Shown: positions 17,151-23,904 of the stretch, piece by piece | Position numbering within the stretch: the stretch's first letter is position 1 | How the letters are laid out: every line of letters starts with the position of its first letter | Assembly (NCBI GenBank): GCA_903889245.1 | Contig: CAISWQ010000079.1 | Location: 876 to 64,875, forward strand | Length of the DNA stretch: 64,000 nt | Source: an uncultured Lentisphaerota bacterium | GTDB taxonomy: Bacteria; Verrucomicrobiota; Kiritimatiellia; CAIQIC01 | Direction of reading: 5' to 3' | Program-made: the position numbers and the translations under genes | Notes under the pieces: model-generated | Seen by the model: only the letters and a program-made list of their open reading frames with translations | Databases searched by the model: none | What the model was told of the DNA's origin: nothing

Positions 17151-17225
17151 CCCCGGCCAGCCCCGCCCGTCTGATGCTGTGTTGATGGAGGGCGAGGCTC
17201 GCCGGGCTGGACCCTTCCATGTCCC

Positions 17226-17298
17226 GTGGGCAGGCGCTCCAACTCCCGCGCAAGCGAACCACAGCCCGACGACCGCGGGAGCTGTAGCCCCCGCCCAC
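17226..17298. repeat. Nested inverted repeat GTGGGCrGGmGCTmCArCTCCCGCG ... CGCGGGAGCTGTAGCCCCCGCCCAC, 25-bp arms with a 23-nt loop
   Basis: Arms at 17226-17250 and 17274-17298. Each arm itself contains a near-palindrome, CGGGAGCT..AGCTCCCG. Confidence 0.8.
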
Positions 17299-17544
17299 AA
17301 GCCTTCTGCGGTGCCCATGATACCTAGAACTACTAGGTATCGGCTCCGGCGGCCGCGAGTGGAGGGGCCGGCCGTGTTCTGACGAGCGCGGCTACCTATG
17401 GGCCGGTGTTCCGCACTCCCCCGCCGGCTGCGCCCCCTGCTGGGTTGCCCGGCAGGGGAGCAGTACTGGGGCTCGACCCGCGCGCCAGTTCCAAAACTTC
17501 CGCATCGGCGGGGCAAGCCGGGGGCGCAGCGCGATACCTAGTAG

Positions 17545-17700
17545 TTCTAGGTATCGATGCCGGCGGCGGCGCGGGCGGGCCGCGTTCTGGCGAGCGCAGC
17601 TACGAAAACGTTCTCCGGCCTTCGACATTCAATATTCCTTGTTCAACATTCTGCGGTTTTTTGCCGCGCTCTGACGAGCGCAGCTACCTGCTTCGCTTCG
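17545..17700 (+). repeat. Composite repeat element, copy 1: terminal 23-bp stem-loop palindrome GATACCTAGTAGTTCTAGGTATC plus an internal duplicated CGTTCTGRCGAGCGCAGCTAC box and an SD-ATG-like module on the opposite strand
   Basis: Near-identical to reverse-complement copies at 22860-22990 and 23720-23860. A truncated copy lies at 17320-17400. Confidence 0.8.
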
Positions 17701-17814
17701 ATATTCATTTCAACCCGCATCTATCGTCCTCGCATCCTGCATCGCCCCCCCCTCGCCCGCCTCGCGGCGGGGCTACAAACGGCGTCGTTGTCGGCGCAGG
17801 TGGAACCGCGCCCT

Positions 17815-17865
17815 CCATGGCCAGGTTCGATGTTGGATGTTCGATGTTCGGTGTTCGATGTTCGC
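17815..17865. repeat. Degenerate heptamer microsatellite (GTTCGAT / GTTGGAT / GTTCGGT) of about 6 units
   Basis: ggttcgatgttggatgttcgatgttcggtgttcgatgttcgctg. Confidence 0.6.
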
Positions 17866-17992
17866 TGCATCCCGCCGCCTTCTCCCTCGCATCCCGCATC
17901 ATGTCTCGCCCGCCTTGCGGCGGGGCTACCAACGACACAGCTTCAGAACAGCGCCGTTGGTAGCGCGCCCGCAAGGGCGCCTCCCGTCGCGG

Positions 17993-18023
17993 CCAAATAT
18001 TTTTGAAGATTCCGGTCGCGGCC
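17993..18023 (+). promoter_or_regulatory. Candidate sigma-70-type promoter upstream of the ECF sigma gene (TTGAAG, 19 nt, TATAAT)
   Basis: ttgaag at 17993-17998 and tataat at 18018-18023, about 40 nt before ATG 18064. The spacer is 2 nt longer than optimal. Confidence 0.3.
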
Positions 18024-18063
18024 GCCGTATAATGCGCGGAGACCATCAGATCGAGGGTCGGAC

Positions 18064-18612
18064 ATGCCCAGTGGCACAGACCAAAAACAGGCGGGCGGCA
18101 ACGGCGCGGTGGACGTGGCGGCGGTCATGGCGGAGTTCGAATCGCCGCTGCTGCGCTACACGGCGCGGTTGCTCAATAACGCCGCGCTGGCGCAGGACGT
18201 GGTGCAGGAGACGTTCATCAGCCTGCTCCGCGCGACACGCGCCGGTATGCGGCCCGATGGCTCCCTCTCGGCGTGGCTCCACCGCGTGGCGCACAACCTC
18301 GCCGTGGACCAGATCCGCAGCGAGGAGCGGCGGCGCGCCCTGCACGCCAGCCAGGCGCGCGAGGCCGCGCCCGCCGCGCCGCCGAGCCAGCGCCGCGAGC
18401 TGGAGCAGGCCGAACTGCTCCGCCTCACGCTGCGCTGCGTACAGCAGCTCGACCCGGCCGAACGCCAGGTGGCCATCCTGCGGTTGCAGGAAGGCCGCTC
18501 CTACAAGGAGATCAGCGCGATCACCGGGCGGAGCGAGGGCAACGTCGGCTGCCTGCTGCACCACGCGGTGCGGCACGTGTCCGAGGACCTGAAGCGCATC
18601 GGTGCGATCTGA
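18064..18612 (+). CDS. RNA polymerase sigma-70 factor, ECF subfamily
   Basis: Region 2 (LLRYTARLLNNAALAQDVVQETFISL) and region 4 (ERQVAILRLQEGRSYKEISAITGRSEGNVGCLLHHAVRHV). Confidence 0.9.
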   Translation: MPSGTDQKQAGGNGAVDVAAVMAEFESPLLRYTARLLNNAALAQDVVQETFISLLRATRAGMRPDGSLSAWLHRVAHNLAVDQIRSEERRRALHASQAREAAPAAPPSQRRELEQAELLRLTLRCVQQLDPAERQVAILRLQEGRSYKEISAITGRSEGNVGCLLHHAVRHVSEDLKRIGAI

Positions 18613-18623
18613 TAGGTGACGAC

Positions 18624-22742: not shown

Positions 22743-22859
22743 GGAAGCGATGGTGAATGGAGGATGGTTGATGGTGGATGAGAAGAAAGCGACGGGAGGC
22801 ACCCTGGCGGGCGCGCTACAAACGACGCCGTTGGTAGTCCCGCCGCAAGGCGGGCTGGC

Positions 22860-22990
22860 CGCAGGAAACCGCAGAATAGTGAACAAGGAATTTTGAATGT
22901 CGCAGGCCGGAGAAAGTTTTCGTAGCCGCGTTCGTCAGAACGTGACCCACCTCCGCAATCACCGATACCTCGAACTACTAGGTATCCGGG
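22860..22990 (-). repeat. Composite repeat element, copy 2, inverted orientation. Ends in GATACCTCGAACTACTAGGTATC.
   Basis: gcaggaaaccgcagaatagtgaacaaggaattttgaATGtcgcaggccggagaaagttttcgtagccgcgttcgtcagaac...gatacctcgaactactaggtatc. Confidence 0.8.
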
Positions 22991-23022
22991 CGACGCGGCG
23001 CGGACCGGCCCAGCCGTTCCTG

Positions 23023-23094
23023 TGGGCGGGAGCTCCAGCTCCCGCGAAAGAAAACCACAAGCTGATGATCGCGGGAGCTGGAGCTCCCGCCCAC
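23023..23094. repeat. Second copy of the GTGGGCGGGAGCTCCAGCTCCCGCG nested inverted repeat
   Basis: Arms at 23023-23046 and 23070-23094, loop gaaagaaaaccacaagctgatgat. Confidence 0.8.
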
Positions 23095-23225
23095 AAGCGC
23101 TGGGAGCGGCGGCCTGCCTGCCGCCACAGTTTAGAAGCGGCAAGGTGGAGCGTGACCTCCGGGCACGCTCTGCACGCGCTCGGAGGCAAGCATTCCACCT
23201 TTTCCTGCGCCGTCTTCCAGGGATT

Positions 23226-23277
23226 GGAAACCGGAACCGGTGGTTTTTCCAAGCCTTGGAAAAGCGGCGTGGCCGGC
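23226..23277. repeat. Palindrome cluster f: 2 copies
   Basis: gtcttccagggattggaaacc, then gtttttccaagccttggaaaag. Immediately upstream of the cystatin-like lipoprotein gene. Confidence 0.8.
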
Positions 23278-23321
23278 GGGTTTTGCGGGCGGAAAAACAA
23301 CACCGAAGAAGGGAGCCGAGG

Positions 23322-23699
23322 ATGCGTACCATGATGATATTGATGCAGGGCGTCGGGCTGGCGCTGGTGCTGTGCTCGTGTGTGGCCTCCACCGCGACGA
23401 AGAAGGAGCCGCTTTGTGGCGGGTTCTCCGAGGCCAAGTGCGATGACCAGTGGGTGGTCGCGGCGGCGGAGTTCGCGGTCAAGGCGCAGGCCCAGGCGAT
23501 GAGTACGGCGGCGAAGCCGGTGGCCCTCACGCTGGTCAAGATCACGCAGGCCCAGCAGCAGGTCGTCGCCGGCATGAACTATGACCTCACCCTGCAGGTG
23601 AAGGTGGCAGGCGCGGCGAAGGAAGCCAAGGCCCGCGTCTGGCGCAAGCTCGATGGCACCCACGAACTGACCTCGTGGACGTGGGCGGAAGCGAAGTGA
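23322..23699 (+). CDS. Small lipoprotein with cystatin-like QxVxG motif
   Basis: ATG 23322 with upstream GAAGGGAG. MRTMMILMQGVGLALVLCSC (lipobox); QQVVAG motif. The ORF track starts earlier inside repeat DNA. Confidence 0.5.
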   Translation: MRTMMILMQGVGLALVLCSCVASTATKKEPLCGGFSEAKCDDQWVVAAAEFAVKAQAQAMSTAAKPVALTLVKITQAQQQVVAGMNYDLTLQVKVAGAAKEAKARVWRKLDGTHELTSWTWAEAK

Positions 23700-23719
23700 G
23701 GATGATAGCCGCGCTCGTG

Positions 23720-23860
23720 AGGGCGCGGCAGAAAACCGCAGCAGGTTGAACCAGGAATTTTGAATGTCGCAGGTCGGAGAACGTTTTCGTAGGCGCGCTC
23801 GTCAGAGCGCGGCCCACCTCCGCGGGTACAGCCGCCGATACCTAGAACTACTAGGTATCG
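23720..23860 (-). repeat. Composite repeat element, copy 3, inverted orientation
   Basis: gaaaaccgcagcaggttgaaccaggaattttgaATGtcgcaggtcggagaacgttttcgtaggcgcgctcgtcagagc...gatacctagaactactaggtatc. Confidence 0.8.
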
Positions 23861-23904
23861 GCGCTCGTAGCCCTGCGACTGGGGGCGGTGCGCTGCTGCG
23901 GTCG

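Follow-up and report, generated by a model that had tools for sequence, protein, structure and literature searches.

The ECF sigma locus and its repeats

We analysed a stretch of 64,000 nt (hereafter the window) from an uncultured Lentisphaerota bacterium (contig CAISWQ010000079.1), in which a repeat carrying its own Shine-Dalgarno (SD) sequence and ATG occurs on both sides of a locus for an extracytoplasmic function (ECF) sigma factor. Genes for a histidine kinase and an OmpR-type regulator (minus strand) are followed by a 1.2-kb spacer and then by the ECF sigma gene. 3′ of the latter lie, in order, a zf-HC2/PATR/VWA anti-sigma gene, a spacer, a cystatin-like lipoprotein gene, a second spacer, a DUF6794 lipoprotein gene and a gene for a GxxExxY protein. 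Sigma homologues with source names belong to Kiritimatiellota.

The sequences compared include L047, which stems from the window's own genome (a single mismatch across 20.8 kb), a sister species (L049/L050), a third related species (L079) and L045, the closest relative examined at the left spacer, with a sigma factor 95% identical. Further relatives (L174, L175, L177, L178 and L179) and the metagenome loci L051-L170, which carry the cassette described below, were also used. For the more distant sigma homologues L171-L173, either the contig stops short of the spacer or the gene order differs.

An initial annotation had placed here four copies of a 130-150-bp element, and all four were recovered at the positions it gave, far above chance. 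The palindrome GATACCTAG-N5-CTAGGTATC is found at 17319, 17533, 22964 (1 mismatch) and 23837, and in none of 100 shuffles. The 21-nt box CGTTCTGRCGAGCGCAGCTAC has five matches with at most 3 mismatches (shuffle mean 0.01), and the SD-ATG core AAGGAATTTTGAATG has three true copies, at 17626-17640 (minus strand), 22885 and 23752. Copies align across 130-170 nt with 82-86% identity: a repeat finder returned arms 17532-17700 and 23692-23860, complementary at 82% over 169 nt, arms 17569-17667 and 22858-22956 (84% over 99 nt), and the direct repeats 22858-22956 and 23725-23823 with 86% identity. Read on the strand toward the next gene, a full copy consists of box 1, AAAACCGCAGAAT-nn-TGAACAAGGAATTTTGA-ATG-TCG-MAG-G...GTTTTC, box 2, a variable stretch of 17-29 nt and the palindrome.

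Contrary to what had been proposed, the copies do not form a single element with its own boundaries: the GTGGGCGGG inverted repeat, more GTAG hairpins and TTCCAAGG palindromes are copied collinearly alongside. Left and right spacers are collinear inverted duplicates of one another, which bears out the further suggestion that the two repeat families of the region make one larger unit. The repeat is probably a mosaic of three unrelated hairpin-type modules that would have come together in an ancestor and afterwards been duplicated as one block; it does not now code for a protein.

The SD-ATG core and the four-helix-bundle cassette

A 20-base search pattern, ACNAGGAATNNTGAATGTCGNAGG, was derived from five copies of the core, the three in the window and two orthologous ones in the sister species. 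It matched at least 120 metagenome contigs, and the arm thus identified is nearly invariant in contigs of 37-65% G+C content (GC), among the matches listed. From the 115 unique copies among these listed matches, about 16 read on into an open reading frame (ORF) of 118-139 amino acids (MSKENKIFDLEERLIDFAVRIIR...), and such ORFs gave hits to TIGR02436 (‘four helix bundle protein’, E 9e-24) as well as to PF05635 (‘23S rRNA-intervening sequence protein’, E 1e-13). A full cassette comprises a left arm, a four-helix-bundle gene of about 125 codons and an inverted right arm (...CTTCATAATTCGAAATTCCTTGTTCGATATTC) in which the ORF stop sits, 388-391 nt past the ATG. About 35 of the 115 listed copies are minimal hairpins whose right arm lies 29-36 nt past the ATG; these minimal forms fold as a single long stem burying the SD, with z-scores of -4.8 to -7. 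The remaining listed copies are mostly internal-deletion intermediates, and 28 are without a right arm.

All three window copies carry the sequence by which the left arm is recognised, GAACCGCAGAAYAYCGAACAAGGAAT followed by SD, ATG and TCG-AAG. The first (AACCGCAGAATGTTGAACAAGGAAT, with SD, ATG and first codons) lies at 17611-17661 on the minus strand with its ATG at 17626-17628, and was supported by pattern matches and by nhmmer (17619-17661, minus strand, E 7.5e-12). The second occupies 22864-22904 on the plus strand (ATG 22897-22899, E 2.6e-9) and has orthologous copies in L050/L049 and L079. The third, also on the plus strand, occupies 23732-23773 (ATG 23764-23766, E 9.8e-5) and has an orthologous copy in L050. 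With a profile of 110 metagenome left arms, nhmmer returned only these three copies in the window and, weakly, heptad repeats at 17838-17861. The latter belong to a run of GAACATC heptads (17825-17870, minus strand) that profile and pattern matches identify as the outer part of a cassette arm, split from the arm by inserted GTAG hairpins; such heptads also occur in L079, L177 and L178. Homology of the window core to the cassettes outlasts the search pattern and continues upstream through AACCGCAGAAT, a subtype common to about 25 contigs among the matches listed.

What follows the arm in a full cassette is missing. A tblastn search of the window with two full proteins gave no match to a TIGR02436/PF05635 ORF, the first 3-4 codons alone remaining, and no inverted right arm (…ATTCCTTGTTCGATRTTC) able to pair with the left arm was found in the window. 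With so little of the gene left, the window copies are relics rather than working members of the family. The earlier proposal of a decayed small mobile gene was thus right for this part of the repeat: at the level of sequence, the comparisons identify the core as the stump of a cassette, reduced to the arm, the ribosome site and the start codon with the first three or four codons. In L079, the site 3′ of the anti-sigma gene carries a box, the left arm, a second box and the right arm, folding together as one hairpin, with no palindrome.

A 23S rRNA intervening sequence (IVS) is defined by its location in helix 25 or 45 and by its excision by RNase III. An rRNA context for the cassettes was considered and rejected: no rRNA was present in the window or in the 7 cassette loci tested, and the cassettes therefore appear to be a dispersed, non-rRNA family. 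Intact cassettes nevertheless share several traits with the IVS of Leptospira and Coxiella that carry an S23p ORF (PMC4990558), namely the protein family (PF05635/TIGR02436), inverted repeats that enclose the ORF and form a long stem, and an ORF prone to decay by deletion. The Coxiella IVS has, besides its PF05635-type protein, inverted-repeat stem and decaying ORF, variable tandem heptamers just 5′ of the start codon (PMC4990558); these are GACAGAT in Coxiella and GAATATC/GAACATC in the cassette. Unlike IVS, however, the cassette family is dispersed in intergenic DNA outside rRNA, in multiple copies and with many empty-hairpin derivatives, and its window copies retain left arm and start codon only. 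Neither the core nor the palindrome was found on phage contigs.

The series that leads from the full copy, by way of internal deletions, to a minimal hairpin with both ends resembles MITEs (miniature transposable elements with inverted repeats) and other internally deleted derivatives of autonomous elements. In contrast to MITEs, no transposase is known or seen for the cassette, no target-site duplications were identified, and the window copies are solo arms. Taken together, the comparisons show that the cassette, composed of left arm, four-helix-bundle gene and right arm, decays through internal deletion to empty hairpins, that the window copies have lost ORF and right arm while keeping left arm, SD and ATG, and that GTAG hairpins have inserted on either side of the arm. 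This accounts for the puzzle of a repeat that brings along a ribosome site and a start codon: it is what remains of a small selfish gene cassette. It also shows four-helix-bundle cassettes, which are known from 23S rRNA intervening sequences, to be widespread as a family beyond rRNA too, one that leaves MITE-like empty hairpins. Filled, decayed and empty orthologous sites would offer material for studying how a cassette spreads without a transposase.

GTAG-tagged hairpins and the GATACC palindrome

Repetitive extragenic palindromic (REP) systems are marked by a high genome-wide copy number and by an associated transposase, the REP-associated tyrosine transposase (RAYT). The box, listed in the initial annotation as a once- or twice-repeated box, is itself a hairpin; on the strand toward the next gene it consists of GTAG, a 9-bp GC stem and a 4-nt loop. 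In the left copy, box 1 (GTAGCTGCGCTCGTCAGAGCGCGGC) was located by a hairpin scan at 17663-17687 and box 2, by box match and hairpin, at 17579-17603; the truncated copy, which has only box and palindrome, carries its hairpin at 17371-17395 (all minus strand; box match and hairpin). On the plus strand, box 2 of the two right-hand copies lies at 22922-22946 and 23789-23813 (both by box match and hairpin), and a box 1 hairpin with the degenerate head ATAG at 23705-23729. Altogether 10 hairpins with a GTAG head and a GC stem of 7-9 bp, belonging to three stem types, occur in three spacers, and one more, that of the copy at 23720, is headed ATAG.

The GTAG-tagged REP superfamily has as its signature a GTAG next to a GC hairpin (PMC3733652), and the box likewise shows an unpaired GTAG beside a GC-rich imperfect palindrome of about 20 nt, 20-40 bp being characteristic of such REPs. 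As in bacterial interspersed mosaic elements (BIMEs), several hairpin families stand abreast in the spacers, 3′ of genes in same-strand pairs (PMC3733652, PMC2817692). The boxes come and go independently of the arm: L177 has heptads and one box, L079 a box on each side of the arm, and L153 other GTAG hairpins behind the same arm. These features show the box to be, as far as its sequence and predicted fold go, a GTAG-tagged GC-rich hairpin of REP type, REP-like, inserted on either side of the arm.

The third module is the GATACC palindrome. Its copies were located by pattern match at 17533-17555 (GATACCTAG-TAGTT-CTAGGTATC), at 17319-17341 in the truncated copy (pattern match and alignment), at 22964-22986 with one arm mismatch (CTCG) and at 23837-23859, about 40 nt 5′ of the DUF6794 signal peptide. 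The metagenome cassette loci L051-L170 do not carry the palindrome, which is therefore a separate module. Between the window and L050, arm positions are identical at 35 of 36 and loop positions differ at 2-3 of 5, while third codon positions of the flanking genes are merely 64-77% identical. Since the arms are invariant, the centre is free and no compensatory change occurs, recognition by a dimeric DNA-binding protein fits better than a mere hairpin.

In a scan of species-representative genomes, the palindrome was present at 44 loci, mostly in metagenome-assembled genomes (MAGs) of Verrucomicrobiota with several copies per genome, together with eight orthologous Nocardia loci. A padR gene adjoins the same palindrome at 6 loci of the Planctomycetes-Verrucomicrobia-Chlamydiae (PVC) group and in 8 Nocardia genomes, and at 3 MAG loci it is flanked on both sides; examples are the PVC MAGs L002, L018 and L035 and the Nocardia loci L004, L008, L009, L027, L030, L034, L038 and L041. 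The distance to the padR start codon is 3-20 nt in Nocardia and the PVC MAGs, the palindrome standing 8 nt before the ATG in Nocardia. PadR-family operators are palindromic sites next to autoregulated padR genes. The GATACC palindrome has a comparable form, a perfect 9-N5-9 palindrome with conserved arms and a free centre, and its adjacency to PadR genes in other PVC genomes and in Nocardia makes a protein-binding site likely. We infer that a protein recognises the palindrome in a sequence-specific manner, and that the site is most likely the operator of a PadR-type dimer whose gene lies elsewhere in the genome. Unlike PadR operators, these putative sites are embedded in repeat mosaics, at distances of 40 to 670 nt from the following gene. 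A literature search on the palindrome sequence found nothing relevant.

CTAG is about tenfold under-represented in the window (21 sites, about 200 expected from composition), and 7 of the 21 sites fall in these four palindromes. A separate observation was made in a Verrucomicrobiia MAG (L019, JBGQCJ010000113), where an 800-bp spacer (1040-1590) holds an array of six GATAC-N13-GTATC hairpins with conserved loops (YACTR) and covarying inner stems (CTAG/CTAG, ATGG/CCAT, TTCC/GGAA, GGTGT/ACACC). With such an array, a hairpin-based role for the palindrome may still be considered.

The hairpins bear on two functions raised by the initial annotation, a structured RNA and a portable promoter. That the whole element yields a structured cis-regulatory RNA or a small RNA is very improbable. 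Box and palindrome give stable local hairpins, with z-scores of -3.35 and -2.29 for two copies, and the copies, in their spacers, are on the strand that is sense for the downstream genes. Folding is only local, however (fold z 0.02 to -3.35), one copy having z = 0.02 and no global fold being common to the copies. Rfam returned nothing at gathering score and, with a permissive E-value, only below-threshold microRNA (miRNA)-model hits on the neighbouring long inverted repeat. The modules are also exchangeable, box 2 being replaced in copy B of L050 by a repeat termed family X and the palindrome being absent in L079, and the palindrome arms are invariant with no compensatory changes instead of covarying. 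As to a promoter, neither a sigma-70-like promoter nor an intrinsic terminator was detected on the element, so that this proposal was not upheld. An ECF-type promoter (TGAAC-N16-CG) in the core was rejected: the motif occurs in every cassette arm, transcription would start after the ATG, and the motif is altered in copy A of L050. A hammerhead-like reading of CTGACGAG...GAAA was likewise discarded, there being no stem II, no GAAA at the second box and no Rfam match.

The feature thus appears best described as BIME-like, combining an IVS-type cassette relic, REP-like hairpins and a conserved probable protein-binding palindrome; in contrast to REP/BIME mosaics, it also includes the relic of a gene cassette and a palindrome not of the REP kind. 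The copies, the palindrome aside, would be relics of selfish DNA without dedicated function.

Spacer duplication and the open frame

In the sister species (L049/L050), arm, box and palindrome occur 3′ of the anti-sigma gene, and arm and palindrome 5′ of the DUF6794 gene. The two right-hand copies are therefore old, as they stand at the same sites in both species. In L050 copy B, the one before DUF6794, a 100-nt family X repeat stands in place of box 2. Family X itself is a GC-rich repeat of about 100 nt (CCCCGGCGGGCTTGCCCCGCCGG...CCTGCCGGGCAAGCCGGCAGGGG), seen in the window at 17397-17532 and in L050 at 1198-1290 and about 450-560. At the first site, among close relatives, L178 has heptads only, L177 and L179 have heptads with a single box, and L174 and L175 have unrelated heptads; decay is graded across six lineages. 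This site, 3′ of the anti-sigma gene, is by its sequence one old insertion that appears to have decayed variously by lineage.

The left copies have another history. Collinear high-scoring segment pairs relate the left spacer (17990 to 17037, minus strand) to the right spacer (22789 to 23262, plus strand), the former being an inverted, expanded copy with internal duplications and the latter the template, with a like module order. In the left spacer this order is GC hairpins, heptads, arm relic, box, palindrome, family X, box and palindrome, long inverted repeat and TTCCAAGG. The left spacer of L045 (645 bp) is without the central part: arm, palindrome, long inverted repeat and TTCCAAGG triplet are all absent. 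Collinearity and absence from L045 together indicate that the left copies come from an inverted segmental duplication, not from separate 150-bp insertions. The alignments thus show the two left copies to derive, on this evidence, from inverted duplication of the whole right spacer, so as to bracket the sigma operon. The old copies, that behind the anti-sigma gene and that ahead of DUF6794, would have come first, and the right spacer would later have been duplicated in inverted orientation.

The same data bear on the possibility that the 150-bp unit is an active non-autonomous transposon, similar to a MITE or to REPINs (paired REPs), inserted four times. Four copies stand within 6.6 kb, presence and absence differ among close relatives, and the unit is built from hairpins, as are REPINs and BIMEs. 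We consider this rather improbable. The unit has neither terminal inverted repeats nor target-site duplications, as a MITE would, and no other copy exists in the rest of the 64-kb window. Flanking modules were copied collinearly with it, which indicates segmental duplication rather than transposition. In addition, two copies are at orthologous sites in the sister species, and the GATACC palindrome never accompanies the arm in L051-L170.

We then consider the conserved peptide (MSQxGExFR...RYLELLGI) reported by the initial annotation. It starts with a good SD at 7-nt spacing and an ATG, its frame is open, and its length varies in frame. However, among five copies the variable columns number 10, 7 and 5 at codon positions 1, 2 and 3, third positions thus being the least variable, and of 15 variable codons 14 alter the residue and 1 is synonymous. 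Past the palindrome, the orthologous ‘proteins’ are unrelated (beyond residue 32). The opening M-S-K/Q is no more than the beginning of the four-helix-bundle ORF, the palindrome has just two frames free of stops, one of them giving RYLELLGI, and other DUF6794 proteins are without it. A real small protein gene is thus almost certainly not at hand. As judged by these substitution patterns, the conserved peptide is DNA conservation with no apparent selection on the peptide, and the comparison shows the element, within the limits of sequence data, not to be a protein-coding gene now. A profile search with three N-terminal peptides gave no candidates, yet it missed an ORF of the window with an identical N-terminus (P0108), and this negative was discarded, since profile-search negatives for very short queries are not trustworthy.

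P0108 (23764-24588) is the ORF in which public gene calls start a 274-aa DUF6794 protein at the relic ATG. It carries about 44 extra residues before the lipoprotein signal peptide, at which ordinary DUF6794 homologues begin. The relic ATG misleads gene callers, and the 44-residue extension of the public product is probably spurious. A twin-arginine translocation (Tat) or long signal peptide as the reason for RRYLELLGI was rejected, because RR is missing from one copy and the signal peptides of other DUF6794 proteins are ordinary.

Several observations weigh against a mosaic of decayed modules. The GTAG hairpins are not enriched, with 13 across the window and about 15 in shuffles; those of the mosaics, about 10 in 64 kb, are confined to three spacers, and a RAYT gene was not seen in the window, to which the search for it was limited. 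With neither window-wide enrichment nor a RAYT in the window, they are here called ‘REP-like’ rather than an active REP system. No PadR gene is present in the window, so that the operator role of the palindrome is proposed by analogy only. Identity of the element between species is 76-86%, barely above that of synonymous sites. Finally, the length variation in multiples of 3 noted previously was confirmed and extended to new copies: ATG-to-palindrome offsets are 67, 73 and 73 in the window and 76 and 169 in the sister species, all 1 mod 3, and at five loci no stop interrupts the ATG frame before the next gene, where the other two forward frames have 24. Constant phase and open frame are real, go beyond what a pure relic predicts and are not explained by coding selection.

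These two properties could be explained if the relic SD and ATG still started translation, the open frame handing ribosomes to the next gene or fusing with it. Hairpin-filled spacers of the sigma-antisigma-cystatin-DUF6794 transcript would thereby be protected from polarity, as ribosomes would never leave these long structured stretches. Junk ORFs would be kept stop-free and in phase over 55 to 145 codons by selection on frame and openness, not on the peptide, and length changes only in multiples of 3 would then go together with non-synonymous drift. In favour of such a relay, the 145-codon frame that ORF analysis finds from the second relic ATG (22897-23334, plus strand) has a stop (23332-23334) overlapping the ATG (23331) of the cystatin-like gene as ATGA; the same overlap is seen in L079, and in L050 the stop is 13 nt before the next start. 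Although their spacers differ in length by 96 nt, the window and L050 alike have the frame joined in phase to DUF6794. An in-frame TGA stands immediately 5′ of the ATG, and small ORFs begin 0-10 nt after the anti-sigma stop in all lineages.

We regard this relay, with translation from the relic ATG, protection from polarity and selection for an open frame, as unlikely. There is no constraint at the peptide level; the frame of the left copy ends after 78 codons with no gene nearby; and metagenome solo-arm relics are fused or coupled in the ATG frame in only 2 of 28 cases (among the matches listed). GC-rich palindromic DNA is poor in stops, and a reverse frame is open in most loci too. A rough p of about 0.003 is post hoc and comes from partly homologous copies, for which reason the loci are not independent. 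The mosaic of decayed modules, with the phase left unexplained, is preferred.

The small ORF mentioned above (MVDGEW.MVDE...) runs through the heptads (22750-22896 in the window; also in L050, L079, L177 and L178), and its TGA directly abuts the relic ATG in the window and L050.

Other repeats of the window accompany the mosaics. TTTCCAAGCCTTGGAAAA palindromes, 31-32 nt apart, are clustered just 5′ of gene starts, and the window contains at least 18 copies; clusters lie at 17037-17148, 23215-23262, 24670-24781 and in at least 10 other spacers, and they occur also in relatives and in the unrelated contig L153. A perfect inverted repeat with 27-bp arms (TGTGGGCGGGAGCTCCAGCTCCCGCGA...) has three copies (17225-17299, 23021-23095 and 63301-63371); it is found 3′ of the anti-sigma gene in L174, L177 and L178 as well, and gives the below-threshold miRNA-model hits in Rfam. 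The block of cystatin and DUF6794 genes (23262-24750 in the window) is missing in L174 (14686-14780). As the L174 junction lies inside a TTTTTCCAAGCCTTGGAAAA repeat, such repeats seem to mediate gene gain and loss by recombination, and may mark break-points around the ECF sigma operon.

The GxxExxY gene (TIGR04256/PDDEXK_3; 24829-25227) is flanked by 36-nt inverted repeats (24788-25306), and an ‘empty’ hairpin of the same two arms lies 70 nt downstream (25375-25455), the same pairing of full cassette and empty hairpin as in the four-helix-bundle family.

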